A model generated the notes under the pieces. It did no database searches. It was not told the DNA's origin and saw only the letters and a program-made list of their open reading frames with translations. Position numbers and translations under genes: made by a program. Shown here piece after piece: positions 30,594 to 64,000 of a DNA stretch of 64,000 nt. This DNA comes from a virus (lineage: Duplodnaviria > Caudoviricetes), in the IMG/VR virus record IMGVR_UViG_3300021295_000003, positions 1-64,000 of that record; one strand, 5' to 3'. Numbering within the stretch: position 1 is the stretch's first letter; each line of letters begins with the position of its first letter.

Positions 30594-30602
30594 ATTTCTC
30601 CC

Positions 30603-31280
30603 CTATTTTGGTTTGATTGAATAGTAGTGTATGTCCCTTCCATTGGTAGCTTTGTCTAATATTTTTGGACTGCACTTTTTGATACCCTTTGTTGGGTCTG
30701 CTATTTTATAATAACCATTCTTATCGTATCCATATATTAAGATATAATGCCCGTAGTCACCGCTATATCCTAAACAAGTAGCAGGGCGTGTTTGGATATG
30801 GGCGATTACGGGGAAACCTTTGTCTATGCTTTTTTTGACTGCGGAGTAGTTTCTGTTTATTTGTGTGGCTTTGAAGCCGAGTTTTGGAGCGTTAGCGACG
30901 AGGTTGCTTGGGCTTGTTCCGCTGCCGATTACTGTGCCTAACACTTTGGCACATTTAGCTTCGCTTTTATAGTCGAATAACATTTGACTTGCCATACTTA
31001 AAGAAGTGGGACAGCAAGTATACGCATTGTCTTGGTAATCAATTACTAATGGGTTGTTAGCAGTTGAATTATAGGTTGTGTAGTTTGGGTAGCGTCCGTG
31101 TTTGATTATGAACACGTTTTGTGCCTCAAACAATCCCATATATTCTTTTTTTTCGAGTTTGTGGGTTTTCCCATTCATATCTTTCATTGTGACATTTTTT
31201 GGGTATCCTTTTTCTTCTTTAAGTGCTTTGTTGATTGTTTTTGCAGTAGTTTGCATTACTGCTTTACTATATCTTGCCAT
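30603..31280 (-). CDS. Endolysin: PMBR plus peptidase C39 (PeiR-like)
   Basis: HGRYPNYT; QDNAYTCCPTSLSMA..GHY..ADP; colinear paralogue of 12328..13005. Confidence 0.8.
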   Translation of the reverse strand: MARYSKAVMQTTAKTINKALKEEKGYPKNVTMKDMNGKTHKLEKKEYMGLFEAQNVFIIKHGRYPNYTTYNSTANNPLVIDYQDNAYTCCPTSLSMASQMLFDYKSEAKCAKVLGTVIGSGTSPSNLVANAPKLGFKATQINRNYSAVKKSIDKGFPVIAHIQTRPATCLGYSGDYGHYILIYGYDKNGYYKIADPTKGIKKCSPKILDKATNGRDIHYYSIKPK

Positions 31281-31281
31281 A

Positions 31282-31434
31282 TTAGTTCCTCCTTTTTTCT
31301 TTGAACATATAATTGGTTTCGTATTCGTTTATTAGACATCGGTTTTGTGAGAGGTAGTTGCATTTACTGACATCGCCATCGTGCCATTGTCGGTAGCAAC
31401 AGCCATCGCATTGGTTTTGTTTTTCTTTTTTCAT
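31282..31434 (-). CDS. Small Cys-rich protein upstream of endolysin
   Basis: MKKEKQNQCDGCCYRQWHDGDVSKCNYLSQNRCLIN..; homologue of 12033..12164. Confidence 0.6.
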   Translation of the reverse strand: MKKEKQNQCDGCCYRQWHDGDVSKCNYLSQNRCLINEYETNYMFKEKRRN

Positions 31435-31454
31435 AAAAACTTATTCCTTGATTT

Positions 31455-32105
31455 TTAATAATTCCAGTCTATTTGTGCAGCTAAGGTTACATTAGTCTGT
31501 GTTGATGAAGTAAGGTTCGCTACACCAACTCTACCATCATAAAAGATATAAAACAAGTTATTGTTTCCTCTATGACCTTGAATAAACTTCTGTGAATGTG
31601 GTCTGTATTGTGATGGTATCCAACCAGTCATTTCGTAATTGCTTATTCCCGAAGCAATGTTTTTTTGGGTTATATTGTAGACAAGTGTTGCATTGCGATT
31701 GGCTTCATCAACATAAAGAGTATAAGTTACTCCACTCCAATTACTGCCTTCCTTGACTTTTTTCTGACCAGTAACATTTATTTGTGTACTGTATGAGTTT
31801 ACAGAGAACCTACATACTCCCCAAGTGGAGCAAGTATATGAATATGTCACTACACCATTACTGTTTGTTGTCAAGGAAACATTTGTACCATTAGCATTCA
31901 AAGTAAAAGAATGATTAGGGACAGTATTATCTGACTGGTCAGTTACTGTAATGGTTATTGTTACATTAGAGCCTATATTCGGATTATAATCGCTTGAAAT
32001 AATATTATATGAAAAAATAGGGGTAGGAGTACCTCCTTTTAATTCGTAAATATCATCAAACCAACTTCGCAACCAAGAAATTAATCCAATTACATCTTGA
32101 CTCAT
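31455..32105 (-). CDS. Tail fibre/adhesin with Ig-like domain
   Basis: VTDQ..VPN..TTNSNGVVT; C-terminal IPSQYRP fibre-tip motif. Confidence 0.6.
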   Translation of the reverse strand: MSQDVIGLISWLRSWFDDIYELKGGTPTPIFSYNIISSDYNPNIGSNVTITITVTDQSDNTVPNHSFTLNANGTNVSLTTNSNGVVTYSYTCSTWGVCRFSVNSYSTQINVTGQKKVKEGSNWSGVTYTLYVDEANRNATLVYNITQKNIASGISNYEMTGWIPSQYRPHSQKFIQGHRGNNNLFYIFYDGRVGVANLTSSTQTNVTLAAQIDWNY

Positions 32106-33235
32106 TGTTCATCTCCATAATAAAGTCTTATAGCACCAGTAGAGTCATCTGATTTAGGTACAAGTTCAATACTTGTAATACTATCCCCTTTTTGAGATAA
32201 TGTAATATATTTAAAATCAAAATGGAAATAAGGAGAAGAAACCTCTTTCCAATAATATAATCTCCATTCATTGCCATAATTGACAATATACATTTCTTCA
32301 TATCCCCAATCACTTGTACCTTGTGGCAAATCAATATAATCAACATAAAATACTTTTCTTTTTGCTAATTCAACAGTTTCAATATTATCAATTGCTTCTT
32401 CGATTTTTGTATTAATTGTTGTTTGTGTTGAATTTACATATGTTCCAATTGAAGTATGTGCATTTGGGTCTGTTAATTCGTTAGTATTATGAGTATGTGA
32501 GAAATCAGTTATTTGTGATTTTGTATGATTATGTGTTGCATTTGCAAAATCTGATGGTTGTTTGTTACTAAATGGATTATTATCTATATCAGACCAGTCA
32601 ATGCTCAAATCATCAAGAATATCAGAGTCCATTTTATGCCATTCAAAATTATTCCCATCGGTTATGGTATAATAAACATTAATCTTACTATTTTCTGAAA
32701 TAATATATAATCTTCCCATTGTACTGCTACTTGCAGTCGGTAAGGTTGAAACCACTTCAATCGCTTTAATACTACTTAAATTACCAATCGCAGTATCAAT
32801 AGCCAAGTTAATTGTAGTTTGACTATCTCCTAAACTTGTTCCAATATTATTTAACACATTAACCTCATAAACCTCATCAGTCTTATGAGTATGTGTTTTA
32901 TTTGCTTTTTTAGCCAGTTCAGTATTTATTACCTTATTCTGTAAAGGATTAGTGCTTGTACTTGACAATGCACTATCCACAACAGTCTTATTCGCCTCTG
33001 CCTCAATATTCGCCAATTTAGACTTCTCTGCACTTGTATAATCCTCTGTGGACAAACCTTTACCAGTAACCTTATCAACCTTATTATCAACAGTTGATTG
33101 CAAAGCAGATAAATTACTATTAGTTGTCTGCAAATCACTAACATTCGCCTTATTATTCAAAAAACCAGTTACTTCGGTCTTATCATAAAACCAACCCTTC
33201 AACCAAGTTATAATCCCATTTAAATCAACACTCAT
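32102..33235 (-). CDS. Tail fibre protein with HxH repeats
   Basis: KVDKVTGKGLSTEDYT..EKSKL, THTH/HNHT repeats. Confidence 0.7.
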   Translation of the reverse strand: MSVDLNGIITWLKGWFYDKTEVTGFLNNKANVSDLQTTNSNLSALQSTVDNKVDKVTGKGLSTEDYTSAEKSKLANIEAEANKTVVDSALSSTSTNPLQNKVINTELAKKANKTHTHKTDEVYEVNVLNNIGTSLGDSQTTINLAIDTAIGNLSSIKAIEVVSTLPTASSSTMGRLYIISENSKINVYYTITDGNNFEWHKMDSDILDDLSIDWSDIDNNPFSNKQPSDFANATHNHTKSQITDFSHTHNTNELTDPNAHTSIGTYVNSTQTTINTKIEEAIDNIETVELAKRKVFYVDYIDLPQGTSDWGYEEMYIVNYGNEWRLYYWKEVSSPYFHFDFKYITLSQKGDSITSIELVPKSDDSTGAIRLYYGDEQ

Positions 33236-33237
33236 AC

Positions 33238-33621
33238 TTAATCACCATTTATATTAATCTGTTTAACACTTAACAACTTTTCAACAATCGCAGTATTTAT
33301 TCTGATAGTATCATCTTGCCCACTTAACCCAAATTGGAAATCCAAATCCACATCATAATCCTCTGTTAATTCGGATTTCTTCACATAATCAGATAAATCA
33401 ATACCCTCTCCTGTGATAGCGTCAAGGATTTTCTCATCAATTTCTCCACTATCATAATAAATAGAAAGGATTTCGTCGATAGTTTGGAGGTTTCCTGCAC
33501 TATCGACAAATTTGGTATCCTCATTGTATTTCACTACGTTTGCAGTTTTCCCATCGATACGATATAAATCGTGGAATAATTTATCTATGTCTTTACGGTC
33601 TTGGAACTCACCGTTCATCAC
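33238..33621 (-). CDS. Hypothetical tail protein
   Basis: IDLSDYVKKSEL; position. Confidence 0.5.
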   Translation of the reverse strand: MMNGEFQDRKDIDKLFHDLYRIDGKTANVVKYNEDTKFVDSAGNLQTIDEILSIYYDSGEIDEKILDAITGEGIDLSDYVKKSELTEDYDVDLDFQFGLSGQDDTIRINTAIVEKLLSVKQININGD

Positions 33622-33745
33622 TCACCACCTCTAAAATGGTTTTGCAAGAGTCATCGTGCCTTGCTTGACAATTATACCTTATACAATAACCGAAAAACTC
33701 ATCGTGCTTAATATAACTTCTGCATTTTCTACAAAACTTATCCAT
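33608..33745 (-). CDS. Cys-rich microprotein
   Basis: MDKFCRKCRSY..YC..NC..SC; GGAGGA RBS. Confidence 0.5.
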   Translation of the reverse strand: MDKFCRKCRSYIKHDEFFGYCIRYNCQARHDDSCKTILEVVSDER

Positions 33746-33761
33746 AATTGATTTTCCTCCT

Positions 33762-36700
33762 TTATGCGTCCCAAATATAAATATCAGGGTCTTCAATAGG
33801 TGAAGCGGTTCTACCAAAGTAAGTCTTATCGCTTCTTGCTTGTTTACGTAACGCCTCTTGCTCCTTACGAATACGAAGATAAGGTTCTATCTCATCTAAA
33901 CCAATTTCAGTTTGAATTTTAGGTATCTGACTATTCTTATAAGTTATCTTAATACTTTCAACAGTTTTTACATCATTCAACTTCCTATAATTAGAAACCA
34001 CTTGTACCAAATCCCCCAATTCTAATTTAGGAGCATACGGTACAACAATTGTATAAGTATACTGCTGTTCAGGATTATAATCCGCAGTATTCCTTGCATT
34101 GAAATACGCTTCCTTACTACCCGTCTGCTCACTAATAGTCTGTAAAGTAGTCTTCTCACCATAATTCAACATACTACCAATATCCGCAGTATCAACATAC
34201 TTATACTTATTCGCAGTATCCTTAAACACACAAATACTCTTATTCCTTAAAGTAGACACAGGAGTATACGTAATATTCGACCAGTTCAAAATATTATTAT
34301 TGTCCCCTTCCGTTGCCTCAAATTTAATTCTATTATCATTATCAACACGGAAATGGATACGGTCATCGCACCTATGTTGCTCATAAGTCATACTAACCAA
34401 ATACTTTGACTGCTCCACAACAGTACCCAGCATATCAATAACAGTCTTACCACAGCTTTGCAAATCAGTAGGGTTTAACGGTTGTCTATCATCAAAAATA
34501 ATCTGATATAAATTCATTTTACAACTACTATTATCCTTTGTAGACTTATCACTTGTATACCAAGTAGTTTTATCTTCTTCGGTTTTTGTCTTTATTTTCG
34601 GAGCTATGATTTTAATACCTTGCAGGTATATACGCTGATTAGGTTCGTTATCTGCAAACCAGTTTTTCAAGTCTACACTTGTTTGGCGTGTTGCATTGTT
34701 CACCCAAACCGCAGACAATCCACTTACATCATTGTTAGTTCCTGCTTTTTGTGTAAAGTTCAAATTAACAGTCTTGGTTTTTGCTTTAAAGGATTGAGTA
34801 GTGGAATAAATGATTTGAATGTAACCTTGAAGAGGAGCGTCTTTATCGTATCCATAAGTAGATGTTGTAGTGGTGGTATTTGTTGATGTGTTACTTCCTT
34901 TTGTTGTTACATTTGCGATATTTCCTCCTTTATACTCTTTGTAAGGTCTATCTTTCAAGTTCGCTCCTTTGGTGGTGTATAACATATGATTTAAGTTATA
35001 TTTAGCATAAGGAAACCTACTCCACCCATTTTGAGCGTTTTTATAGTATACTTCTTGATGTGTACTGCTTTGACTTGTTGAAAACTCATAAATTCTACAA
35101 GCAACTTTATATTTCTTTAATTCTGTGAAAATCAAATCAGAAAAAGCGTGACAATCCCCTTTACCTGATTTCTTCATTGAAGAGTAAGTAGCACTTGTTC
35201 CTCTTTCGTATTTGTATTTTTTAGCAATCTTTGCAACTGATTTTAATACGTCATCACTACTTACTTTTACTCCGGATTTTGCTACTCCTGACATTTCGCC
35301 ATTATGGAGTTTATTCTGTTCGGCTTTACTTGATTTAACAGGTCTTTTAACATATTTTAAACGTTTACTGTAATGTCCGTCCTTATCCCAACCTGTAACA
35401 GAACAGAAATCGGCACAACAGTTACTACAAGTAATCTCTGTTTCACTTATGTTACCCCATTCACGTTTACTATGCTTGTAATGTCCGCAATGAACACAAT
35501 CTGTGTCTTTACGTCCACTATCCCAAACGAGCTTACCTCCACAATGAGGACACTTGTTCTCAAAGACTGTACGATAAATCTGATGGTAAGGATAAGTGTT
35601 TTTACCTTTCCCAACACTTCTTTGACCAATAGCCATCAAATACTTACCGTCTTGGCTTCTTCCACATTTACCAAACTTCTGACTTCCCGCAGCGTTTTCA
35701 GAATTATCTACTTGTTCAATGGTAGTGTTTTTCTTTTCTGATTTGGTCGCACCTAAACCATAGGTCATATGGAATGTTAAGTGATTTGTAATGTCTATTG
35801 GTTTTTTAACGTGTTTTTCTGCATTGTATAGTTCAAAGACTTGTTTTTTCTTTCCACTTGCATTGTTACGTAGCATTATACTGTTTTTATTAACTTTGCT
35901 TGTACAATTTGTAGTTTTGATTTTTTTAATGTCTTTGTTTTTACCGAATTTAATTGCTTTTGCAGTAGAATACTTTTCCCCTGCTACAAGATAGTTTTTA
36001 CTAATGTTACTGTCTAATGTTACTTCAAATACATCGCAAATGTATTTTAATGCTTGTCCGTAGTTTTGGAAGTTGATTGGATTGTAGTATTCCCATTCTG
36101 TATCGGCAACAGTTCCTTTTAAGATTAAAAGACTATCCAAGATGTATTTATTCTCGCCATCTTGTAAACGGTCAGCACAACTAAATTGCAAAGTTGTACG
36201 GTCATCATCAAGTTTAACAGTAGAAATATAACCTCCAAAACGCCTAACAACTTCACCATTAAGTTTATCATTGACACGGTAATAAACATTGACTTCGTCC
36301 ATATAATCCATATAAAAACCGCTACGGGACAATGGATTGTCGAAAGTTTGGCTATATGAAACGGTGAAAGAAGCTTCACTTGGTTTAACCATATCAGAAT
36401 GGGTCACAGAGCATTCAGTAAGTGACAAGTTTGTCCCTGCACTATCAACATTATCACCTGTGAATAGTTTTATTTTACGTATAATCACGCCGACGAAATA
36501 ACAATTAACAGGAACATCAATAGCAAGTTTATGATTACCCTTTTCACCCATATTCACGTATAGTGTTGTACGTTTTAGGATATTTGGTTCACCATCAAAG
36601 TTTAACCTGTCCCCTGCTAAACGTGGAGTTTTAACAATCTTATTTTTTAATTTGGTTATTAAATCTTTGACTTTTTGAACTTCTGCTTTACTTAATCTTT

Positions 36701-37241
36701 TTGCTTTCTTAACAGCGTCATCATACGCTTTTTTATCGGCTTTTGTTTTTTTAGATTTGTTATAAACCTCTTTTGCTTTTTTAAGTTTCTTTTTATAAGT
36801 TAAGTCTGACGCTTCTTGAACTTCTTTTAATTTTTTATTGTAAGCAGTTAAATCTTTTAATGATTTACTAATTGTTGCAGAGTTCTTATAAGTTACTTTT
36901 GAAGTAGTATGAGTGAGAGTGTATGCTCCCACGTAATCACTACTGTTTTTATTCTCATAGAGAATGTCTATACGATAATCCCCACTTTCAAGACAATTAT
37001 AATCCATCTCCATAGTGAAATGACTTTGTTTATCTTTTGACTCAAAACAAGTTAAGTGTCTATGACTTACTTTTGAATGGTTCTCCCCTTTAAAGTCATA
37101 ATTACCGTTATGATAAGTTTTAGTGAGCTTATGCTCATAACTAAATATTTCTACTCCGCAATATTCGTGTAGAGGTCGAAACACTTCTTCTTTGTGTCCT
37201 GTCCAATCACGATATATATGTTCTGATACCACAAAAATCAC
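33762..37241 (-). CDS. Tail tip/hub protein with Zn-ribbon and transglutaminase-like domain
   Basis: CPHCGG..CVHC..CSNCCADFC; GDCHAFSD..STHQEV. Confidence 0.6.
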   Translation of the reverse strand: MIFVVSEHIYRDWTGHKEEVFRPLHEYCGVEIFSYEHKLTKTYHNGNYDFKGENHSKVSHRHLTCFESKDKQSHFTMEMDYNCLESGDYRIDILYENKNSSDYVGAYTLTHTTSKVTYKNSATISKSLKDLTAYNKKLKEVQEASDLTYKKKLKKAKEVYNKSKKTKADKKAYDDAVKKAKRLSKAEVQKVKDLITKLKNKIVKTPRLAGDRLNFDGEPNILKRTTLYVNMGEKGNHKLAIDVPVNCYFVGVIIRKIKLFTGDNVDSAGTNLSLTECSVTHSDMVKPSEASFTVSYSQTFDNPLSRSGFYMDYMDEVNVYYRVNDKLNGEVVRRFGGYISTVKLDDDRTTLQFSCADRLQDGENKYILDSLLILKGTVADTEWEYYNPINFQNYGQALKYICDVFEVTLDSNISKNYLVAGEKYSTAKAIKFGKNKDIKKIKTTNCTSKVNKNSIMLRNNASGKKKQVFELYNAEKHVKKPIDITNHLTFHMTYGLGATKSEKKNTTIEQVDNSENAAGSQKFGKCGRSQDGKYLMAIGQRSVGKGKNTYPYHQIYRTVFENKCPHCGGKLVWDSGRKDTDCVHCGHYKHSKREWGNISETEITCSNCCADFCSVTGWDKDGHYSKRLKYVKRPVKSSKAEQNKLHNGEMSGVAKSGVKVSSDDVLKSVAKIAKKYKYERGTSATYSSMKKSGKGDCHAFSDLIFTELKKYKVACRIYEFSTSQSSTHQEVYYKNAQNGWSRFPYAKYNLNHMLYTTKGANLKDRPYKEYKGGNIANVTTKGSNTSTNTTTTTSTYGYDKDAPLQGYIQIIYSTTQSFKAKTKTVNLNFTQKAGTNNDVSGLSAVWVNNATRQTSVDLKNWFADNEPNQRIYLQGIKIIAPKIKTKTEEDKTTWYTSDKSTKDNSSCKMNLYQIIFDDRQPLNPTDLQSCGKTVIDMLGTVVEQSKYLVSMTYEQHRCDDRIHFRVDNDNRIKFEATEGDNNNILNWSNITYTPVSTLRNKSICVFKDTANKYKYVDTADIGSMLNYGEKTTLQTISEQTGSKEAYFNARNTADYNPEQQYTYTIVVPYAPKLELGDLVQVVSNYRKLNDVKTVESIKITYKNSQIPKIQTEIGLDEIEPYLRIRKEQEALRKQARSDKTYFGRTASPIEDPDIYIWDA

Positions 37242-37850
37242 CTATATTGGTTTAATATTTGTTGTTTGTTCTGTTTGATAAATAAATTCGACAAATAAGT
37301 TCTCTGGTTTATCGGTTAAAGGTTCGCCCTCAATGTGAGGTGCTAAAACAGTTAAATCAGTTGCAGACAATACATTAGAAGTGAATGGCTTACGTTTCGG
37401 TCTAATAATCTGCAAATAATTACCATTAGCAGTATAAACATTCACATAACTATTATTAACAAAACCAATGTCCGCTTCTACTAAATCATCATTAACATAA
37501 TGGTAATCCTCAAATTCTCCATTTTGGAACATCATCTCGGTGAAATAACACGGATTATCATCATCAACATTAATCAAGACTAATTCTAACTGTATTTGAT
37601 AAATCTCTTCTAAATCGGCTTCGGATAACTCGAAACTATCGTGATAACTACTCCAAGTTTCATCAATAGCCCACCTACTTCCAGTATAGAAAGGGTTATT
37701 GATTTCGTTCCCCTCGTAATCAAAGCAATGGAGAATATAATACATTACAGCGACTGTTCTACATTTTAAATAGTTCACAGAGAATGTTATTGTCCCTGCT
37801 TCCATCTCGTGATTTTGTTTTGGGAATAAAATATGTATCTCATCTTGCAT
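37242..37850 (-). CDS. Tail protein (possible carbohydrate-binding fold)
   Basis: Position; beta-rich sequence. Confidence 0.45.
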   Translation of the reverse strand: MQDEIHILFPKQNHEMEAGTITFSVNYLKCRTVAVMYYILHCFDYEGNEINNPFYTGSRWAIDETWSSYHDSFELSEADLEEIYQIQLELVLINVDDDNPCYFTEMMFQNGEFEDYHYVNDDLVEADIGFVNNSYVNVYTANGNYLQIIRPKRKPFTSNVLSATDLTVLAPHIEGEPLTDKPENLFVEFIYQTEQTTNIKPI

Positions 37851-37853
37851 AGT

Positions 37854-39560
37854 TTACAACCTCTTGATTTTCAAATAATTAAATGTTACAAAACTGGAAA
37901 CGAACTTTTTGTCCACTGCGGAGTTTTGAGCAGGTTCAGCCATCAAGAAAGAAGTTACCCCACTTATATCCCCTGAAAAAGATGTAATTAATACACTATT
38001 ACGATAGATGTAATATGTACCATTCTGATGTCTAAACCTTACCACATCATTCGCTTTTACAGAAAACCCATCTCCCATAAAGATAGAAAGTAAAGCATTC
38101 TGATAAGTAACATTTTCCCAATAATAACCTTGACCCTTTGTTTTTTTCTCATTAAATACAGATTGGGCTTGAACAACACTTAAAGACACTTCAAAATCAA
38201 TACTCAAATCCAAAGCAACACTAATAGAAGACCCATTCGTTAATTTATAACCTGTACTCAAACTCTGCAACGAACCATTAACATTAGTATACTCTTGATT
38301 ATAAGAAACACCACTTGCTCTCCAATACTGCAAAACATCTTCAATAGTCAAACTGCTTGAACTACCTGTAATTGCTGCGGAAACATTCACATCACCTGCC
38401 CCTGATCCGTTATATTGTTTGACTATTAAACCATCTTCACTTGTAGTATATGTTCCACTTATCGCTCCTGTGAAATTCACAGGGATTGGAGTTTCTGCTC
38501 CTTGTACAGTTGCAGTAATAGTTGATTGATAGTTTTGAGAAGTAATCAAAGTATCAGCGGTTAATGAAACAGTAACATCAGGGTATAATACAATAGTAAT
38601 ATAATCTGAATAATAAGTCACATCATCAATAGTTGTAGGTAATCTAAATGTCCATCTCCTTTCAGAAACAACAGATGCAGGTTCGTGAGGGTATGGACGA
38701 GATATATTTACTTCTCCATTGCTATCAGTAGTAACGTCCCATATTGTTTGGTTTGCTATACCTTGTCCAAGATAATTCTCCAATCTTGCACGGATATTCA
38801 CATTTTCAAAATTAACAGAATAAGGAGAATAAGATAATATTTGTATAAGGTATCCTACACTTATATTGAAAGTTAATTCACTTGCTCCGCTGTGTTCGTC
38901 ACCTTCAAAATTAATTCTAATGGTATGACTGCCATCAGTTAATCCATTAACTTCAAGAGTTGTATTCCCTCTATCGGTATTAGCTGGGAGAGTAATATTA
39001 GTTGTACCTTGGCTTACATCATCAATAAACCATTCAACAGATTTAACTTCTGCCTTAACAAAAGATTGTCCACTTACAAATTCAATAGGTAATGAGAAAG
39101 CTGAATTTGGAGTATAATTAACGGTTGAGTCATTATATCTTCTAATAGTGGAAGAATAAGCGTCAGGAGTTGGTTCAGTAATAGTTATAAGTCTTGATTT
39201 ACTTCCAAGACAACGGTCATTGCCTTTAAACCTTGCACGGAGATTATGCTCAACATCATAATTCAAATGAACATTAAACGTAAGTTCAGGGTCTTCTTCG
39301 CTCCAATCAATCATATCTGTTTGTAATCCTCCAACGAAAATAGGTATAGGTTCGTCATTATCGTAAACAATAATGTTACTTGTTCCTTTTTCCCCTACCA
39401 CATCAACGGTGAAAGTTTGAACCCCATACTCAATCCTACTATTAGAAAAAGAAACAGGAGTTAAAGTAATGTCAGTTGATTTCGTATAACCAACATCACC
39501 TAAAACCTCAAAAGCTTCTTTTTTTATTTCATAATCGTAGTAAGTTTTTATTCTTGCCAT
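37854..39560 (-). CDS. Ig-like adhesin with C-domain related to the switchable domain of module A
   Basis: GSGAGDVNVSA..SLTIEDVLQY..YLKIKRL. Confidence 0.6.
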   Translation of the reverse strand: MARIKTYYDYEIKKEAFEVLGDVGYTKSTDITLTPVSFSNSRIEYGVQTFTVDVVGEKGTSNIIVYDNDEPIPIFVGGLQTDMIDWSEEDPELTFNVHLNYDVEHNLRARFKGNDRCLGSKSRLITITEPTPDAYSSTIRRYNDSTVNYTPNSAFSLPIEFVSGQSFVKAEVKSVEWFIDDVSQGTTNITLPANTDRGNTTLEVNGLTDGSHTIRINFEGDEHSGASELTFNISVGYLIQILSYSPYSVNFENVNIRARLENYLGQGIANQTIWDVTTDSNGEVNISRPYPHEPASVVSERRWTFRLPTTIDDVTYYSDYITIVLYPDVTVSLTADTLITSQNYQSTITATVQGAETPIPVNFTGAISGTYTTSEDGLIVKQYNGSGAGDVNVSAAITGSSSSLTIEDVLQYWRASGVSYNQEYTNVNGSLQSLSTGYKLTNGSSISVALDLSIDFEVSLSVVQAQSVFNEKKTKGQGYYWENVTYQNALLSIFMGDGFSVKANDVVRFRHQNGTYYIYRNSVLITSFSGDISGVTSFLMAEPAQNSAVDKKFVSSFVTFNYLKIKRL

Positions 39561-56553: not shown

Positions 56554-56554
56554 T

Positions 56555-57001
56555 TTAATACCTCAATAAATAACTTAAAACAATCATAGATGAGTATAAA
56601 GTCTTACTTCCTTTATAGGACTCTGCGTCCTCACGGTTATTCCTCATTGCACGTATTTCAGATGTTTGTAAGAATGTTAAGTCAAGATTTGATGTTAATA
56701 ATAAATTATCAATTATTTCTTTCATTGACTCTGCATACTTGGTTAATCGTAGAGTTATACTACGTGGGTGGTTTGTATTATGTATAATGATTATATCGAG
56801 TTGCCTTTCATAAACACAACCAGTAGCGTCCAATTGATAAGGTTTCCCTTGCAATACTATTTCGGTTGTAGTCATATTATCAGGGATCAGCTCAATCATA
56901 TCCCATCTGACAGGAACTTTATTAAAATCTGTGTCATCAGTTATGGCTTTCCCTAATTGTTCTAATACTACTGCATACCTTGACATATTCTCGGTATCCA
57001 T
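56555..57001 (-). CDS. Putative tail terminator/completion protein
   Basis: Position and size. Confidence 0.45.
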   Translation of the reverse strand: MDTENMSRYAVVLEQLGKAITDDTDFNKVPVRWDMIELIPDNMTTTEIVLQGKPYQLDATGCVYERQLDIIIIHNTNHPRSITLRLTKYAESMKEIIDNLLLTSNLDLTFLQTSEIRAMRNNREDAESYKGSKTLYSSMIVLSYLLRY

Positions 57002-57004
57002 AGT

Positions 57005-57811
57005 TTACCACTTCCTGCGTCCTACTCTGAATAATTGCATTTGAATGTATTCTTCGTTTCGATTATTCTCGATGTTGGATAGGTAATTGGCAATTGCGGA
57101 GTCTACTTTTCCGAATAATCTGTCTGCATAGTTGTTAGACTCTGATTTAGGTTCTTTCATTGGTTTGGCTTCGTATTCCCAACGTGTTAGCCAAGCGAAT
57201 GCTCCTGCTGCCATATAAACGTATCTTTGAAGAGTTTTCGGTATTTCTATTGTACCTGTTTTCTCTTTTTTCATATCGTTAAGTCCACGAAATACGTAGT
57301 CTTCTCCGCTGTAACAGGCTTTTTCTATATCGGTTAAGGTATAGGTGTAGTCTAAACTTTTTATTATGAGGTTGAGTATTTCTACACCTGTTACATCTGT
57401 TCCGAAATCGATTTTTATACTTTCGAGTCCTGTGAGTTCACGGGTGAGGTCTACTGCGGTATTGTTTCGGTCTATCTCAAATAAAAGAATGTCTTCTTTA
57501 TCTGATGATATTTCGGTGTTCTTTGGTTTTACTGATAGGACACTTGCATTTCCGTTAAGTAGTGGACTAAAACTTAAAGTAATATTAGATACATCTACCT
57601 CAACTTGGTGACAATTGATAAAAACTTGCACATAATCAGTACCCTCAAACTCCGCATAGATTAATGGCAAGACAATACTATCTCCTTCAACAAAAGTTTC
57701 TTCTGTAAAGCAGACTGGTTCTTGTCTATCTACACGTGCTTTTGGTAAATATTCCAAGACTTTATAATAATCTTTCATTGTGAATTTAGAGGTCTTATCC
57801 TCTGTTATCAT
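57005..57811 (-). CDS. Putative head-tail adaptor
   Basis: Position after the MCP; helical C-terminus. Confidence 0.45.
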   Translation of the reverse strand: MITEDKTSKFTMKDYYKVLEYLPKARVDRQEPVCFTEETFVEGDSIVLPLIYAEFEGTDYVQVFINCHQVEVDVSNITLSFSPLLNGNASVLSVKPKNTEISSDKEDILLFEIDRNNTAVDLTRELTGLESIKIDFGTDVTGVEILNLIIKSLDYTYTLTDIEKACYSGEDYVFRGLNDMKKEKTGTIEIPKTLQRYVYMAAGAFAWLTRWEYEAKPMKEPKSESNNYADRLFGKVDSAIANYLSNIENNRNEEYIQMQLFRVGRRKW

Positions 57812-57839
57812 AGGTTAAAAACCTCCATTTATAATTTTT

Positions 57840-58301
57840 TTAGTCTAATGTTATATCGAAATGATTATTAGTTTTACTAACTTCAATAGGAGTCCAACGT
57901 GAAGAAAGTTCTACATCACCAGTTGGGTTCCCAGTAGCCATTACTCTATAACTGCCTGTTGGAATGTCCCTTATTGTGCAACCTCCTTGACTACCAGTAG
58001 TTCCAGTTCCTATTGTAGTAGGCGTTTCCTCATCTGTACCTATGGTTACAGTAGCATTATTAACAGGGTTTCCATTAGCAGTTACTGTAAAACTAACCTC
58101 TATTGAGCCAGTAGTAGGTTCAGATGTGCTACTTTGAGAGTCAGTAGAGGAAGAGTCATTAGACTCTCCTCCACTACCATTAGCATTCTCTAATGCCTCT
58201 AATCTATCCTCAAAATCCTGTAAAAGAGAGAATAACCTAACCTTTTGGATTTTACCCCTTTTCAACAATTTAACTTTGATACCTTGAAACATCAGTATCA
58301 A
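57840..58301 (-). CDS. Ig-like capsid-associated protein
   Basis: GNPVNNATVTIG..GTTGSQG..IPTGSYRV. Confidence 0.55.
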   Translation of the reverse strand: MILMFQGIKVKLLKRGKIQKVRLFSLLQDFEDRLEALENANGSGGESNDSSSTDSQSSTSEPTTGSIEVSFTVTANGNPVNNATVTIGTDEETPTTIGTGTTGSQGGCTIRDIPTGSYRVMATGNPTGDVELSSRWTPIEVSKTNNHFDITLD

Positions 58302-58308
58302 CTCCTAT

Positions 58309-59202
58309 TTAGATACCTTCTTGGAAGACTACTGCTTTTGGTTCAAGAACTGCAAATCCATATTCAACATACATTTGGATTTTAACACTACGAGGGATTT
58401 CATCTAATTTATCAACACGATTAATGTGGATAAAAGTACCGAAATCATCGTGTAAAAGGTTATCAGTTGGATATACATTGTAATACCATTTAGCAGGTTT
58501 AAGGTTCATATCAATACCAAGTAAACCGCTTTCTAATTCGCCAATACCTTTAAGGGTTGCACCACGTACGTTAGCAGGGTTGAAACCATCATCATTCACA
58601 ACTTCGTAGTAATCTTCTGCTCCCCAATAGGAAGCTTTGGAAGTGAACATATCAGTTAATTTGTAATCGTAACCTTCCTGATTTTCAAAAGCACGTATTA
58701 AGTGTTTCACGTCATCATCAATGTACTCATTACCTTCGGTAGCCCAAGAACCTCCACCAAGAGTAATGGTTGGAGCTTCTGCTGCTTGGGTGAGTACAAC
58801 ATAAGCGTGTCTGTTAAGGGTTCTTGCCATAGCATAACCCATCATATCAGTAGTTAATTGGATTTTATCAGCGTTAATTGGGTCACGGAGTGCTTCTTCG
58901 GTGAACTCTGCTTCAAAACCAATTCTACGCATTTTACCGATGTTACGGCTAATTCCAGTAATTTTAACTTGTGGAAGTTGTGCTGCTTCCATAATTTCAA
59001 CTGGTTCGTGTAAAATACCGTTTACGATTTGTTGTTCTGCGTTAGACTCGTTTCTTGCGAATGCAAAACTATCTCTACCTTCATTGTTCTTTTTCTCGAA
59101 CATTCCAAGCATATTTAAAGTTGGGTTCATCTTTTCAAAGGTAGTGAGTTCGATATTTTCTGGTTGTAATATCTCATCAATTTCTTGTACGATAAGTGAC
59201 AT
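58309..59202 (-). CDS. Major capsid protein (HK97 fold)
   Basis: Position, size, IGFEAEFTEEAL and GFAVLEPKAV motifs. Confidence 0.75.
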   Translation of the reverse strand: MSLIVQEIDEILQPENIELTTFEKMNPTLNMLGMFEKKNNEGRDSFAFARNESNAEQQIVNGILHEPVEIMEAAQLPQVKITGISRNIGKMRRIGFEAEFTEEALRDPINADKIQLTTDMMGYAMARTLNRHAYVVLTQAAEAPTITLGGGSWATEGNEYIDDDVKHLIRAFENQEGYDYKLTDMFTSKASYWGAEDYYEVVNDDGFNPANVRGATLKGIGELESGLLGIDMNLKPAKWYYNVYPTDNLLHDDFGTFIHINRVDKLDEIPRSVKIQMYVEYGFAVLEPKAVVFQEGI

Positions 59203-59216
59203 AAAAATAATCCTCC

Positions 59217-59768
59217 TTATTTAATTGCTAATGCAGGAACGAAACCTGCTTTTAAAGCTTCTACACTTGCAAGGGAAATCCAATTAGTTTCACTATTAGA
59301 TGTTTCAAATTCCTCATTTGCTGTGGAGTCTAAAAAGTCCCCTGCGGTAATTGCAGCATTTGCGGATTTGATTTTTAGTTCGTCTACTGTTGCTCCGAAA
59401 AATTCGACAGTTGCTCCTCTTGGGATAAATTCTCCCCATTCTTTGCTTTCTCTTGGTAAAATGTTTTGTTCATCTTCTGTCCAACCCATACCATCTCTTA
59501 ATTGTGGGTTGTTGATGATTTTACCAATGGCTTGACTTGCTTTTGGAGCTGGTTTTACAATAATATCTCTTGCAGTTGAGTCTTGGTGTAAAATAACGTA
59601 CTGTCCAATGTGCATAGGTGCAGCAAAAGTCCAATCAGGGTTTGGTCTACCAAATTCATCAAATCCTGTGTTCTTAAAAGTCATATCCCCTTCATACAGT
59701 CTTACTGCTAATCTTGGTCTATGATTTCCGTAATCCCTTGCAGGGATACCTGCGTCAATAACTCCCAT
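59217..59768 (-). CDS. Putative capsid cement/decoration protein
   Basis: Between scaffold and MCP; AITAGD motif. Confidence 0.5.
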   Translation of the reverse strand: MGVIDAGIPARDYGNHRPRLAVRLYEGDMTFKNTGFDEFGRPNPDWTFAAPMHIGQYVILHQDSTARDIIVKPAPKASQAIGKIINNPQLRDGMGWTEDEQNILPRESKEWGEFIPRGATVEFFGATVDELKIKSANAAITAGDFLDSTANEEFETSNSETNWISLASVEALKAGFVPALAIK

Positions 59769-59769
59769 T

Positions 59770-60681
59770 CTATTCTCCTCCTTGTTTTATAAAAGATGGT
59801 TCTTTACCATCGTGGGTTTTTTTGTAAAATTCTAATGCTTTTTCAGCTTTTGACGGTTCGTTACCCTCGTTTCCTTCACCTACACCTTCGGCGTTTTGTG
59901 AGCCGATACCTTGTGCTTTTTTAGTGATTTCACGGTGGTTTGCAAGACTTTCAAGTTGTTCCATTGAAGCGTCTTTCCACGCTTTTTTGGCTTCTTCGTC
60001 TTCGCCAAATGCCTTGTTAAGCAATTCTGTTTTCTTGGCTTCTTCTATTTTAGAATAAGCCTCTGCTCTTGGTTTTAAACCATCTATTTGAGCTTGATAA
60101 TCTTCGTTTGAAGATTTTAAAGTAGTAATTTCTTGTTCTAATTCAGTAATCCTATTGTTTAAATCATCGACTTCGCCTAATTTTTTCTTATTAGCTTCAA
60201 TAATCGCTTCTTTTTGTGCGACTTGTTTGTTTAAGTCTTTGATTTGTCCATTTAAGGTATTAATTAGTTCTTCGTTCATTTTACTTCCTCCTTCGACACT
60301 ATTACATAAAATATGGCTTCTTGGTTTATCAGTCAAAATTACTTTTAATAATTCCCCATCAATAGCTTCGTAATAATCGCCTTTATCAATAAAATTAACA
60401 GAGAACTCTGGACTGAACCCTAAACCATCTAATTTCTCGTTAGTAGTTACTTCGGCTACTAATTCATTGTTATTAAAACCATAATTGTTAGTATAACCTA
60501 TCACATCAATTTTATTGTCCCCGTGTGAAGCTTCTAATGTTGAGCCACCAGTCTTTGAGGCAATCTCCTTTAAGAAACCATCAGTATAATTAACAGGTTT
60601 AACATCAAGTCCCTGTTTAATATACCATTCCTTATCATAAGTGATAGTACCAGTTTTAAATATAGTAAATTTATCAGTCAA
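59770..60681 (-). CDS. Prohead protease/scaffold protein
   Basis: N-domain (H..GFSPEF) plus acidic coiled coil. Confidence 0.6.
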   Translation of the reverse strand: MTDKFTIFKTGTITYDKEWYIKQGLDVKPVNYTDGFLKEIASKTGGSTLEASHGDNKIDVIGYTNNYGFNNNELVAEVTTNEKLDGLGFSPEFSVNFIDKGDYYEAIDGELLKVILTDKPRSHILCNSVEGGSKMNEELINTLNGQIKDLNKQVAQKEAIIEANKKKLGEVDDLNNRITELEQEITTLKSSNEDYQAQIDGLKPRAEAYSKIEEAKKTELLNKAFGEDEEAKKAWKDASMEQLESLANHREITKKAQGIGSQNAEGVGEGNEGNEPSKAEKALEFYKKTHDGKEPSFIKQGGE

Positions 60682-60687
60682 TATACA

Positions 60688-61461
60688 TCACCAACCCCTT
60701 AATTCCATATACTCATCAGAATAAACATCAGGCAACACCGGAACAAGAACACACATACCATTCGGGTGGTCTACTGGCCACCAAGACAATGGCATTGCTC
60801 CCATCGCTTCCAATTCATAACACCACGCACAAGTATTAATTCCACTCACACGCCAATAGAACAACGCTTCCTGCCCATAAATAAAAGTCTGATATTCACG
60901 TACAATCCTATTCCTTGCATACTGGGCATTATAATCAATATGATTAACCAAACGCCTCATAGCTCTACGGAAATTACTATGCAAACTAAACATACCAGTT
61001 GTAATAGCAACGTCCTTGTAAAAAGTTGCTTTATTCTTCAAATCAGTATATAATGTATCAGTAACTGTATCAACAGCAGAGTCAATAATAGACTCCAAAT
61101 CAACATCAGTAGAAACAGTTCCAGTTGGAATAGTGTATTCTACATCGAAATCAGCTTGAACATCAGCAATATAAGTCGCAAACAATGACATTAACAAATC
61201 TTTCATATCTGTATTGAAATCAGCGAGTTCCTCCTCAAAGGTTTCAGACAAGATATAAAATTCAGAGTCATACTTATGCAACAAATAAAACTCTTGAAGA
61301 AGACTTAAAGCAATTGCAATGAGTTTTTTAATTTTCTCATCACGTTCCTTCTCTTCTTCTTCCTCAAATTCTTCATCAGAGATTTCATTATCTAATAAAC
61401 CAAAAAACTCCTCATAATTTGGGGCTTCACGAACTGACTTCGGCAAGTCTACCAGCTCCAT
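60688..61461 (-). CDS. Head morphogenesis protein (Mu gpF/SPP1 gp7-like)
   Basis: TCAWC..PVDHPNGMC. Confidence 0.7.
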   Translation of the reverse strand: MELVDLPKSVREAPNYEEFFGLLDNEISDEEFEEEEEKERDEKIKKLIAIALSLLQEFYLLHKYDSEFYILSETFEEELADFNTDMKDLLMSLFATYIADVQADFDVEYTIPTGTVSTDVDLESIIDSAVDTVTDTLYTDLKNKATFYKDVAITTGMFSLHSNFRRAMRRLVNHIDYNAQYARNRIVREYQTFIYGQEALFYWRVSGINTCAWCYELEAMGAMPLSWWPVDHPNGMCVLVPVLPDVYSDEYMELRGW

Positions 61462-62722
61462 TGTTGATATTATTATAATTCATACCATCGGTTGGTTTTG
61501 AAGTTGAAATATTACCATTCTCATTGGTTATTGTATCGTCACCGTTTCCTGATCCTTCTTCGTTTTCAAGATATGTTCCCTCATTGATTTCAGGGTTGAA
61601 ATTAATCCAAACTTTTCCAGTCATACCTTTTAATTCAAGCATTGTTTGGAATAGTTTTTCCATATAACGTGATAACTTCTCTTGAATATATTCTTGGACT
61701 AATACTCTTCCGCTTTTGTCAGAGTCTAATTGTACTACCGCAGTAGAACGATTAGAGCTACTTGAAGAGTAAATCGCTTCCGGTGTGAATAATCCAACGA
61801 AAATACAATGTTCTAAATAATTTAAGTAATCTTGAACGTCAGGTAAGTTTGTATCTCCAATGAGTTGCGGTTCAATACCGAACGGTAAAGCAGTAACACC
61901 TAAATTATGATAATCTGATAACGCTTCGACCATTGCGTCCACTTCGTCATCTTCTATATTAACTTCCTTACGGTCTTTGTTACCTATTTGTAAAAATAAA
62001 GTGTTTGCTTGTTTAAAAACAATTTGGGGCATCATCTTTGTGAGCATTAAGTGCATATAAGCAAAATCCAAGACATTAGCCACTATTCCTTGTGGTTTAT
62101 CGTGTCTACGGAAAAATGCGGACACCATTAAATCATCAGGTTCAAAATCAAACTCCATTTGCTCATTATTCTTCACAATTTCGTTGAAACGTTTTCTAAA
62201 CCAACCTTTGTTAGTATTTTGGTTTACTTCAACGATTTGTTTGTAACCTATGATTTCTGCTCCGGTTTCATCATCGTAGATTTCTTTTATACGATAATTT
62301 TCCCCATCAAACGCTAATTCACGTAGAGTAACTTCGTTTTTATCTATAACTATCTCACGGAAGTCCACTCCATCAACACAATTATTCCATACAAGATTGT
62401 GCATTAAGGTTGAATAATCTAATCTTTCGTCTTCTTTGATGATGAAATCAATCGCTTCTTGATTATCGCCCTCAATAACCCAACCGCTAATAGATTTAAT
62501 TACTAAATCTTCTAAAATACCATTAACAATTGGGGATTTCTCTGCACATAATCGTAAATTCTTTATTGATGGAATAACAAGGTCTGGGAGTTTCTCTCCC
62601 CAATTAACACTTTCTTGATTTATATTCCCTCTTACATCATCAAAGCCAACATCTGTAATATCAGATTTTTCGCTATTGAATAATCTTGAACCGACTTTGA
62701 TAATTGGGTCAAATATTCCCAT
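61427..62722 (-). CDS. Portal protein
   Basis: Directly after TerL; size 431 aa. Confidence 0.75.
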   Translation of the reverse strand: MGIFDPIIKVGSRLFNSEKSDITDVGFDDVRGNINQESVNWGEKLPDLVIPSIKNLRLCAEKSPIVNGILEDLVIKSISGWVIEGDNQEAIDFIIKEDERLDYSTLMHNLVWNNCVDGVDFREIVIDKNEVTLRELAFDGENYRIKEIYDDETGAEIIGYKQIVEVNQNTNKGWFRKRFNEIVKNNEQMEFDFEPDDLMVSAFFRRHDKPQGIVANVLDFAYMHLMLTKMMPQIVFKQANTLFLQIGNKDRKEVNIEDDEVDAMVEALSDYHNLGVTALPFGIEPQLIGDTNLPDVQDYLNYLEHCIFVGLFTPEAIYSSSSSNRSTAVVQLDSDKSGRVLVQEYIQEKLSRYMEKLFQTMLELKGMTGKVWINFNPEINEGTYLENEEGSGNGDDTITNENGNISTSKPTDGMNYNNINNGAGRLAEVSS

Positions 62723-62723
62723 C

Positions 62724-64000
62724 TTAATACACTCTCACTTTTCTGTAAAAATCTTTTCCCATAGGACGATTTGGTGATAAACTTCCCCTTACACCATACA
62801 CTCCATAAGCCAATGCGTCCATAGCGTGGTCATTAACCTTTACTGGCTCATCAAGAGTCACTCCTTCACGGTTTTTACGATATTTATAACCTTTAATCTC
62901 ACGTATTGTATTAACGCAACGTGGGTGAATATGAATACGAGTCTGCTTTGTAGTAGTGATTTTCGCCTTAACGTCCTTAATTCCTTTCTCCATTGGAAAA
63001 CCATTCTGTACAAACTCTTCAATACGGTCAGGTTCGGCAGCGTCACCGTAACCTGTGTTTAAATGCTCCGGCAGTAATTTATGCTTGAATAACATATCTT
63101 TACACTCTTGAATTAATTCACGGTTTAATAATTTCGCTTTATAAACCTCATCAAGCACATACACTTCATTATCATACCAAGCAAGTAATAAAAAACAACT
63201 TGGATTGTTAAAACCGAAGTCTGCTCCGAAACTGTAAAAATCAAAATTATCACGGACAACAACTGTATCATAGTTCGGATAAATCACATCTGTTAATTTA
63301 CCCCATTGTCCGGCACTATAACGAAGCCATAGCTCGTAATCTTCGTTTTTCAAGTTATCATAATAATCACGCTGAAATTTCGGTAATTTCAAATTCTCAC
63401 TATAATGGAAATGTGCTGATTTCCTCCTTTTCTGAATATTAGCCAAAATTTCCTCATAACTTGGATAAGGTTTGCCCTCTGCGATGGCTTCTTGTTTTTT
63501 AGTTTCAAATTCAGTAGTAGCGTCCGCAAATTCGTGATAACGTTTATAAATCCAATGCTCCTCACTTTCAGGTTGAACTACAAGTAACATTTGCGAATAT
63601 CCTCCTTCACGTTTACTTGCCTCGCCCCTACCAAGACGTAACATTAGTTCAATATAAAACTCGGGACTATTAAGTTCCTCCGCTTGTTCAATGTATATCA
63701 TATCTGCGTTGATTGAACGCACCTTCGAGAGCTCGTCTAACGCACCAAAATACAATTTACTATTGTTACTAAACGTAATAACTCCCTCTGACTTGTTTTC
63801 CTCATAAGGAATACCCAAATCATACAAAATATTACGAATTTCCTTCCAAGAAGTACGCTTCAAAGACGGTAAAGTCTTACGATAAATATAAATTGAAGCG
63901 TCAGGATACTTTAACGCATAAAAAATGACTTTATAACAAGCAAAGATAGTCTTACCTGATCCCGCACTACCCTCTATGAGTAATTCACGTGTACGGTCAT
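62724..64000 (-). CDS. terL: Terminase large subunit (5' end outside window)
   Basis: Walker A EGSAGSGKT near 63950-63975; nuclease motifs DFGFNNP and DHAMDAL. Confidence 0.9.
   Translation of the reverse strand, partial: DRTRELLIEGSAGSGKTIFACYKVIFYALKYPDASIYIYRKTLPSLKRTSWKEIRNILYDLGIPYEENKSEGVITFSNNSKLYFGALDELSKVRSINADMIYIEQAEELNSPEFYIELMLRLGRGEASKREGGYSQMLLVVQPESEEHWIYKRYHEFADATTEFETKKQEAIAEGKPYPSYEEILANIQKRRKSAHFHYSENLKLPKFQRDYYDNLKNEDYELWLRYSAGQWGKLTDVIYPNYDTVVVRDNFDFYSFGADFGFNNPSCFLLLAWYDNEVYVLDEVYKAKLLNRELIQECKDMLFKHKLLPEHLNTGYGDAAEPDRIEEFVQNGFPMEKGIKDVKAKITTTKQTRIHIHPRCVNTIREIKGYKYRKNREGVTLDEPVKVNDHAMDALAYGVYGVRGSLSPNRPMGKDFYRKVRVY

Follow-up and report, generated by a model that had tools for sequence, protein, structure and literature searches.

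In a temperate virus of Methanobrevibacter, GATC has been removed almost completely, and most surviving copies (20 of 24) are embedded in one asymmetric word, GGATCAG, which is itself over-represented and more evenly spaced than chance predicts. GATC nucleases are encoded in the host genus. The sequence analysed (the window) is 64,000 nucleotides long and corresponds to positions 1-64,000 of IMG/VR record IMGVR_UViG_3300021295_000003. We give about an even chance to the explanation that restriction avoidance has acted together with a candidate site-specific reader, which may be a DNA modification or a protein bound there, and by which (C)GGATCAG is both exempted and favoured.

Two viruses in one record

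The 104.7-kb record is composed of two viruses fused via a 739-bp common repeat. The initial annotation regarded 'module B' as part of one genome; it is instead a separate virus, wrongly fused to virus A. Virus B closes on itself in public assemblies, and its depth differs from that of A. The components are:

1..25664, continuing at 87639-104717 of the record: virus A, myo-like, 43 kb
25665..26403, + strand: repeat R1, 739 bp, 99.3% identity to 86900-87638; the false A/B join
26404..64000 in the window, on to 87638: virus B, sipho-like, temperate, 61.2 kb, Methanobrevibacter

None of the motifs purged from virus B is present in repeat R1. In virus A, GATC is depleted 4-fold and CATG and CTAG are present; the varied GATC contexts remarked on initially for the first part of the window are seen across 1-26 kb.

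GATC survives in a single extended context

An exact scan of the window finds 28 GATC in total. Ten lie in 30600-64000, all within CTGATCC/GGATCAG and all where the initial annotation had placed them, with none missed; on the + strand, GGATCAG is read at two of them (40170 and 56885) and CTGATCC at the other eight. The additional sites it gave at 28351 and 29272 are both GGATCAG. It put the expected GATC in 30600-64000 at roughly 100; the values calculated here are 106 (order 0) and 84 (orders 1 and 2). The GGATCAG sites of virus B in the window are:

28350..28356, + strand: sense, frame 2 (AGG ATC AGG), HNH/NUMOD3 gene
29271..29277, + strand (CCGGATCAG): sense, GGA-TCA-G, ERCC4-HhH nuclease gene
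38402..38408, - strand: sense, GGA-TCA-G, 568-aa tail protein gene
40169..40175, + strand: antisense to the 1483-aa gene (ACT GAT CCG), retained amid a polymorphic stretch
43763..43769, - strand: sense (CGG ATC AGC), 1483-aa gene
45875..45881, - strand: sense (TTG GAT CAG), tape-measure gene
48703..48709, - strand: sense, GGA-TCA-G, tape-measure gene
50674..50680, - strand: sense, GGA-TCA-G, tape-measure gene
53325..53331, - strand: intergenic, 38 nt upstream of the tape-measure start codon
56884..56890, + strand: antisense to gene 56555-57001 (CTG ATC CCT)
61549..61555, - strand: sense, GGA-TCA-G, gene 61427-62722 (431 aa), retained in the 99%-identical fragment L004
63956..63962, - strand: sense, terminase Walker A motif (GGA-TCA-GGT-AAG)

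The gene at 61427-62722 would be the portal by its position beside the terminase gene; it is without a family match. At the terminase Walker A motif, 11 relatives encode Gly-Ser without GATC and GGA-TCA-G is present in virus B alone. The Walker A heptamer is a derived state.

Across the whole of virus B (26404-87638), 24 GATC are observed against 174-199 expected: 20 in GGATCAG, three in AGATCAG and one in CGGATCCG. The exceptions to the heptamer lie outside the window:

68295, 68334 and 72232: AGATCAG
68258: CGGATCCG

Two AAAAGATCAG sites and one CGGATCCG adjoin replication-origin iterons; searches of this exception zone (65-69.5 kb) gave no tRNA and no convincing Rfam family. NGATCN classes other than the favoured one are represented by 0-1 copies each in virus B, against 2-25 expected, and GGATCAH is absent against an expectation of 21.6. 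Codon bias, raised at the outset as a possible cause, does not account for the deficit, as 500 synonymous-codon shuffles give 121 +/- 9 GATC against 20 observed in ORFs. Only an exemption in which a 7-9 bp asymmetric word is recognized accounts economically for RGATCAG in 23 of the 24 survivors.

The heptamer is enriched and dispersed

GGATCAG is present 20 times in virus B, against 4.3 expected from an order-2 Markov model, and 19 times in coding DNA, against 4.0 in codon shuffles. The octamer CGGATCAG occurs 11 times against 0.6 and is the top-enriched octamer of B coding DNA, where 10 copies compare with a mean of 0.5 (maximum 4) in codon shuffles. The heptamer thus lies ~5-fold, and the octamer ~18-fold, over neutral expectation. 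Codon bias and composition were considered as a cause and are ruled out by the Markov and codon-shuffle nulls.

The enrichment signal acts at the DNA level. All three reading frames are used, with 14 sites in sense orientation, five antisense and one intergenic; the sense share (14/19) compares with ~65% expected from composition. Gly-Ser pairs are encoded by GGA-TCA in 8 of 19 cases when the next codon starts with G (1.6 expected) and in none of 48 before other codons. The preference for flanking bases stops at -1 (C in 11 of 20) and at +8 (G or C in 15 of 20), and the 25 nt on either side of the heptamers contain no longer repeat or bipartite motif. A likeness to a Shine-Dalgarno sequence or the 16S end (GGAUCA) was considered and dropped; most heptamers are sense and deep in ORFs, so that they do not pair with the 16S 3' end.

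Spacing between heptamers has a coefficient of variation of 0.65 against 0.93 for random placement (P=0.03) and is therefore evener than chance. One pair lies just 45 bp apart, a point against the preferred reading; with that pair merged, evenness reaches P=0.011, and no gap is shorter than 921 bp (P=0.002). Strand polarity is not seen: the - strand has 13 sites and the + strand 7, and the two arms have 8:2 and 5:5 when the origin is taken to lie at the iterons (68.4-68.8 kb). Four heptamers in 20 kb compared across four runs are unchanged, where only ~0.1 changes would be expected.

Motif purge and host restriction

Virus B has been purged of at least 14 families of restriction-type motifs, GATC among them: CATG, CTAG, GATC, GGCC, GCGC, CGCG, GAWTC, CTNAG, GGATG, CASTG, GTCTC, ACGAC, GGWCC and CTGRAG. 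CATG is present once against 197 expected and CTAG is absent against 146. The other purged motifs retain 0-8 copies, and their survivors share no common context; survival in a single context is confined to GATC. The under-representation is strong against both composition-based and codon-aware nulls, as in restriction-site avoidance.

Nucleases of the Sau3AI family are encoded in 13 of 81 Methanobrevibacter genomes and those of the DpnII family in 5 of 81, so that 18 of the 81 have one or the other. The Sau3AI-family ORF lies beside a C5 methyltransferase in all four genomes checked, and one such Methanobrevibacter ORF matches PDB 4PXG at 6e-48. A predicted m5C GATC methylase is listed for Methanobrevibacter sp. 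YE315 in a table citing REBASE (PMC11033074). The suggestion in the initial annotation of strong selection by a GATC-targeting defence is supported by these nucleases and by the place of GATC among the purged motifs. Of 103 Methanobrevibacter genomes, 9 encode the BREX marker PglZ. In 389 kb taken from two Methanobrevibacter genomes, GGATCAG occurs 15 times against 16.7 expected and 18 times against 19.8 (sum, 33 against 36.6). The list of purged motifs may be taken as a readout of the restriction repertoire met by viruses in rumen and gut Methanobrevibacter.

The pattern has been seen in a single lineage, consisting of virus B and the 4.1-kb fragment L004 (99% identity), which counts against the preferred reading. 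Relatives at ~74% nucleotide identity have varied GATC contexts, and the motif is absent from them. Searches for closer relatives with three queries (terminase, tape-measure protein and methylase module ORF) against contigs from viruses, genomes and metagenomes recovered only the 4.1-kb fragment. DNA comparison across 103 Methanobrevibacter genomes gave nothing closer, everything else being at or below ~75% identity and without the pattern, and no provirus exceeds 73% identity to B in these genomes.

A candidate reader

Virus B carries a split multi-module C5 methyltransferase (74040-75672), the sole candidate gene found for the reader. The N-terminal half matches PF00145 at 74067-74561 (243 bits), and the C-terminal motifs lie at 75227-75484. 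Its translations contain at least three module-like segments, in separate ORFs. The recognition modules have no similarity to the recognition region of a host methylase that partners Sau3AI, and the module ORF has no close relatives in viral contigs. A search of the record gave no Dam-type or N6 methylase in virus B. An asymmetric 7-bp target would be unusual for a C5 enzyme. When the literature was searched for methylation at GGATCAG/CTGATCC, the sole hits were primers and the GATCAG motif of Salmonella methylome papers. The GGATCAG-specific methylase or factor predicted initially was thus not found as such, the multi-module C5 methyltransferase being all that B offers, and for this reason the shield is something that we infer.

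In the mechanism that we propose, B has been stripped of GATC, which Sau3AI/DpnII-family nucleases of the host genus cut, along with the targets of many other host restriction enzymes. A reader with an asymmetric 7-9 bp footprint would mark or occupy (C)GGATCAG(G/C), leaving the inner GATC uncut. Reading of the word would also benefit the virus, such that sites are created and retained at about one per 3 kb. If the C5 methyltransferase were the reader, it would yield GGAT(m5C)AG, which would block Sau3AI-type enzymes; DpnII-type enzymes are not blocked by m5C. The purge, the exclusive context, the enrichment, the spacing and the GATC nucleases of the host genus are observed, whereas the protection, its agent and its benefit are inferred. 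The earlier idea of a single shielded context stands in part: an exempt word is economical, but the heptamer has multiplied beyond mere survival. A shield alone gives no ground for enrichment or even spacing. More tentatively, and at somewhat less than even likelihood, (C)GGATCAG may be the target of a putative new 7-9 bp-specific modification or DNA-binding factor that hides an otherwise lethal site and is positively selected as an evenly dispersed genome mark.

Alternative explanations

Some of the surplus could arise from the purge itself. If the word were shielded but conferred no benefit, extra copies would be by-products, formed as forbidden neighbours (GAATCAG, GGATCAA and GGATCTG) mutated into the allowed word. 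Escape of this kind lifts the simulated number of heptamers from 3.7 to ~7; rare Arg codons are chosen in AGG/CGG-ATC-AG, at places where the purged GAATC would result from AGA-ATC, and G-GAT-CAG is found where GAC would make the purged GGACC. However, 1200 simulated purges, in which protein sequences were fixed and only synonymous single steps allowed, gave 7.0 +/- 2.3 heptamers (maximum 17) and ~1 octamer (maximum 5), and the 19 heptamers and 10 octamers of virus B were never reached. Eight of the 14 sense sites are GGA-TCA-G, in which the required flank change is nonsynonymous and three synonymous exits stand open, and the spacing is evener than random; we consider a shield without benefit unlikely. 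We are similarly doubtful that the heptamer is a functional cis-element in which GATC is coincidental, such as a site bound by a viral protein of replication, recombination or genome organisation, or an uptake-like self-marker, kept in spite of restriction and with protection only a side effect of occupancy. The enrichment, the even spacing, the 7-9 bp logo with soft edges and the orientation independence all agree with such an element, as do the AAAAGATCAG and CGGATCCG sites beside the origin iterons, and by a rough estimate ~15% of random heptamers hold one of B's purged words. Against it, no protein emerged as a candidate to bind the word, the sites lie within ORFs without a common neighbourhood, the motif is absent in relatives, and twenty cuttable GATC would cancel much of the gain from purging ~150.

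Several nucleases with longer GATC-containing targets (such as RGATCY, TGATCA, GGATCC and CGATCG) might also remove every context but one with no need of a shield. Many specificities are clearly present in the hosts of B, and in two Methanobrevibacter genomes depletion affects GATC in other contexts but spares G-flanked GATC (~0.8-1.0 of expected). These nucleases would nevertheless have to cover nine of the ten NGATCN classes and GGATCAH yet spare GGATCAG, plain GATC nucleases exist in the genus, and the enrichment would be left unexplained, making this account very improbable. A repair or conversion bias that turns near-cognate words into GGATCAG has as a model the very-short-patch repair of E. 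coli, which is tied to an m5C methylase, enriches CCWGG and depletes CTAG. Although m5C-type GATC systems occur in the genus, the record has no Vsr match (PF03852), the donor word GGATTAG is not depleted in B (11 against 5.6 expected) and the Walker A heptamer arose by a T-to-A transversion, so that we hold such a bias to be highly implausible. The record is a chimeric assembly, which might suggest an artefact of assembly or sequencing, or else chance or codon usage. The same B sequence is nevertheless found in four other public assemblies, chimerism touches the A/B joins alone, and both nulls, Markov and codon-shuffle, fail by many orders of magnitude; the probability of an explanation of this kind is negligible.

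Relation to known systems

Restriction avoidance is textbook; a purged motif left in one extended word, and multiplied there, is not. We know of no described case of a purged motif with one exempt, over-represented context. In Bacillus phages SPR, phi3T and rho11s, multispecific C5 methyltransferases protect phage DNA at several targets, and M.AquI is composed of two subunits. Virus B likewise has the catalytic N-terminal part of its enzyme in one ORF and several tandem recognition modules in others, but known C5 modules read 4-6 bp, mostly palindromic sites, whereas GGATCAG is a 7-bp asymmetric word. Two-site nucleases spare sparse, wide-spaced sites, as seen for the EcoRII-refractory sites of T3/T7 and Type IIE Sau3AI. 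The heptamers of B are at least 921 bp apart save for the 45-bp pair, but spacing alone accounts for neither the strict context nor the enrichment.

As with Chi, KOPS and uptake sequences, B has an asymmetric 7-8-mer enriched in coding DNA in all frames, and even spacing is common to uptake sequences and the B heptamer. Unlike Chi and KOPS, the heptamer is no more strand-polar than composition predicts (13:7 over all sites; 5:5 on one replication arm), and the host over-representation that marks Chi or an uptake-type self-marker is not seen in the two host-genus genomes. The Salmonella StySA BREX system has an asymmetric adenine methylase that reads GATCAG, with the methylated A outside the GATC core. 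Viruses should avoid BREX sites, yet B enriches the motif, which argues against a BREX or Type IIG target. A published survey treats the avoidance of restriction sites by phages and archaeal viruses (PMC6286503). Short palindromic and Type IIS-like targets are likewise near-absent in B, with matching nuclease families in the host genus; B differs in showing at least 14 families in one genome and a single exempt, over-represented extended context.

If the more tentative reading, that of a hidden and positively selected genome mark, is correct, archaeal viruses would have in GGATCAG a type of self-marker or anti-restriction element not known from them. A modified word would point to a specificity not yet described, perhaps that of a phase-variable multispecific methylase, and to a route to keeping a needed site under restriction; a bound word would be a cis-element new to archaeal tailed viruses. 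Virus B is plentiful in public faecal metagenomes and present in roughly 12 public runs, and its word depth of 120-250x in two runs makes methylome work practical.

GATC sites and the identity of the record

An exact scan finds 28 GATC sites in the window. Only ten lie between 30600 and 64000, against a computed expectation of 84–106 (the initial annotation had proposed about 100); their start positions are identical to those it gave, and all ten, like the sites at 28351 and 29272, sit within CTGATCC/GGATCAG. GATC is depleted across 1–26 kb too, where its contexts are varied, as had been described for the early kilobases. The restriction of GATC to GGATCAG is confirmed, and is stronger than first stated.

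The record is a single 104,717-bp IMG/VR assembly whose ends overlap by 151 bp. It contains two complete virion gene sets, one sipho-like and one myo-like, and a direct repeat:

62724–64043, minus strand, sipho-like terminase
58309–59202, minus strand, sipho-like capsid
55090–56319, minus strand, sipho-like tail tube
44552–53287, minus strand, sipho-like tape measure (2911 aa)
92.8–102 kb, running on into 1–11 kb, myo-like set (terminase, XkdF protease, sheath)
25665–26403 and 86900–87638, direct repeat of 739 bp, copies 99.3% identical

The repeat copies coincide with both composition boundaries. In public faecal metagenome assemblies, word depth on the sipho-like side is flat (249 in run X5, 120 in X7), that on the myo-like side is lower and patchy (contigs at 13–94 and 10–52, respectively), and that at the repeat is summed (331 and 131). 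In other assemblies, the sipho-like virus has 2.5–20 times the depth of its partner. The contig spanning the repeat in the public assemblies continues leftwards into sequence identical to 86873–86902, so the sipho-like virus closes on itself. Judging from the separate depths, the summed repeat depth and this self-closure, two viruses are falsely joined in this record, or at most form a rare co-integrate: virus B (26404–87638; 61,235 bp) and virus A (the other ~43 kb).

Methanobrevibacter genomes contain relatives of the virus B terminase (84% and 71% identity). Virus B also codes for an integrase, RecT, an ArdC-like protein, HNH and ERCC4 nucleases and a PeiW-like lysis peptidase. The repeat is B-like in composition, which suggests recent exchange between the two co-occurring viruses. 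The terminal overlap (window 1–151, record 104567–104717) has one mismatch and falls inside a long virus A ORF across the record ends, probably the tape-measure gene. In runs X7 and X12, a divergent allele with >20 differences in ~775 bp occupies window 40105–40879, in the gene for a 1483-aa tail protein; the rest of the 20 kb compared across runs is nearly invariant.

Motif purge in virus B

At least 14 motif families have been purged from virus B.

Motifs purged from virus B (observed/expected, order-1 Markov)
CATG, 1/197
CTAG, 0/146
GATC, 24/176
GGCC, 2/58
GCGC, 2/32
CGCG, 6/29
GAATC/GATTC, 1/132
CTAAG and CTCAG combined, 4/175
GGATG, 0/72
CACTG, 1/71
GTCTC, 0/63
ACGAC, 0/52
GCATC, 8/56
GGWCC, 6/43
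CTGAAG and CTGGAG, 0/37

Relatives of B share the depletion of GATC, GGCC, GCGC and CGCG and do not share the CATG purge. Virus A retains most of these motifs and purges mainly GATC (partially, 30 vs 133 expected), GGCC, CCGG and GACGC; the avoidance profiles of these co-occurring Methanobrevibacter viruses are very different. Virus A has an N4/N6 methyltransferase at 21912–22601.

The few non-GATC survivors in B have no common context, and several cluster at 66.2–68.4 kb, adjoining the iterons of the probable replication origin. This zone (66200–68400) holds most of the residual GCGC, CGCG, GGCC and GGWCC, with CATG and CTAG still at zero; a search of it for tRNA or Rfam families found none, and its ORF 66611–67276 had no family match. 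The iterons, ~11 copies of TTTAAGTTATGGTAGATA spaced by 37–50 bp (68430–68810), probably form the origin of B. Just upstream are three non-heptamer GATC sites, one in CGGGATCCG and two in AAAAGATCAG, spaced by 37 and 39 bp. Other enriched words resemble escape products of the purge, with GAC-TCN or GAG-TCN in place of GAT-TC or GAA-TC (GAGTC/GACTC, 95 vs 63 expected) and GAC-GCN in place of GAT-GC (GACGC, 54 vs 24).

GATC-targeting enzymes in the host genus

The purge of many motifs and the presence of GATC nucleases in Methanobrevibacter bear out the earlier proposal of strong selection by a GATC-targeting defence. ORFs of the Sau3AI/MutH family (443–489 aa) occur in 13 of 81 sampled species genomes, one matching Sau3AI (PDB 4PXG) at 6e-48, and in 4/4 genomes checked a C5 methyltransferase of 424–425 aa directly adjoins the ORF; DpnII-family enzymes occur in five of the 81. 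A table citing REBASE includes a predicted m5C GATC methylase for Methanobrevibacter sp. YE315, and also GGATG and GGNCC enzymes (PMC11033074), which correspond to other words purged from B. A defence-driven purge in B is well supported.

Across 389 kb sampled from two Methanobrevibacter genomes, GATC reaches 0.47 of its expected count, and G-flanked GATC is close to expectation, including GGATCAG (33 vs 36.6). Surviving GATC sites in relatives of B also favour GGATCA. Together, these indicate that a weaker, genus-wide tolerance of GGATC underlies the strict rule in B. In the same two genomes GGATC/GATCC is near expectation, with CGATC and AGATCG contexts depleted 5–15 fold.

Enrichment and placement of GGATCAG

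The 24 GATC sites of virus B comprise GGATCAG (20/24), AGATCAG (3/24) and CGGATCCG (1/24); two AGATCAG copies and CGGATCCG adjoin the origin, and the third AGATCAG is at 72232. All remaining contexts are empty (GGATCAA, GGATCAC and GGATCAT together 0 vs 21.6 expected). Under an order-2 Markov null, GGATCAG occurs 20 times vs 4.3 expected and the octamer CGGATCAG, which contains it, 11 times vs 0.6. Codon bias, named at the outset as a possible explanation, does not produce these counts: 500 synonymous-codon shuffles gave 4.0 heptamers vs 19 observed and 0.5 octamers vs 10. In coding DNA, CGGATCAG ranks first among all octamers and the heptamer fifth among heptamers. The word is positively favoured in B, and the pattern is a new form of restriction avoidance, so far seen in one virus lineage only.

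Heptamers lie in sense (14), antisense (5) and intergenic (1) positions and use all three frames; C precedes 11/20 and G or C follows 15/20, with no further conservation. Codon choice at Gly-Ser is switch-like: GGA-TCA is used in 8/19 pairs before a G-starting codon (1.6 expected), and GGA-TCN in 0/48 before other codons. In the terminase Walker A motif, 11 relatives encode Gly-Ser without GATC, and GGA-TCA-G is found only in B and a 99% identical fragment (L004). At Asp-Gln, GAT-CAG is used in 2/2 cases after a codon ending in G, and otherwise GAC-CAG (5) or GAC-CAA (2); CAG thus appears in 7/9 vs 22% genome-wide, perhaps a remnant of earlier GATCAG sites.

Heptamers are more evenly spaced than chance (CV 0.65 vs 0.93 random, P=0.03); merging the pair 45 bp apart gives P=0.011 and a minimum gap of 921 bp (P=0.002). 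That pair, the only close one, is inverted (75885–75936) and lies within a 54-aa ORF ~160 bp 3′ of the last methyltransferase ORF.

Candidate readers of the word

It is sound to infer from this pattern that GATC within GGATCAG would be shielded. The effect of a shield alone was modelled by purging a simulated ancestor, unpurged but with the proteins and codon usage of B, through random single synonymous changes that permitted GATC only within the heptamer. With proteins fixed and synonymous steps only, heptamers rose from 3.7 to ~7.0 ± 2.3 (maximum 17 in 1200 runs) and octamers reached ~1 (maximum 5); none of the simulated purges attained the observed 19 and 10. Given this rise, escape into the allowed word contributes, and a few sites resemble escapes; the excess is not explained by it.

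The only DNA-modifying gene in B is a split C5 methyltransferase, with a catalytic N-terminal ORF (74040–74564) followed by a G-run and several segments resembling recognition modules (74625–75672); searches of B for an N6 methylase and for Vsr found none. Because m5C at GATC blocks Sau3AI-type enzymes, this methyltransferase is the leading candidate reader of GGATCAG. Its modules are unlike the recognition region of one host Sau3AI-partner methylase, and no close relatives were found for correlating the gene with the pattern. Equally compatible is a bound protein, which would be the better explanation of the enrichment and spacing. Models of a polar sequence of the Chi/KOPS type fail on strand counts (13:7, and 5:5 along one replication arm) and on the absence of enrichment in the two Methanobrevibacter genomes. 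GATCAG is a known BREX motif in Salmonella, and PglZ, of BREX in Methanobrevibacter, is present in 9/103 genomes; the predicted effect of BREX on a virus is motif avoidance, whereas virus B shows enrichment.
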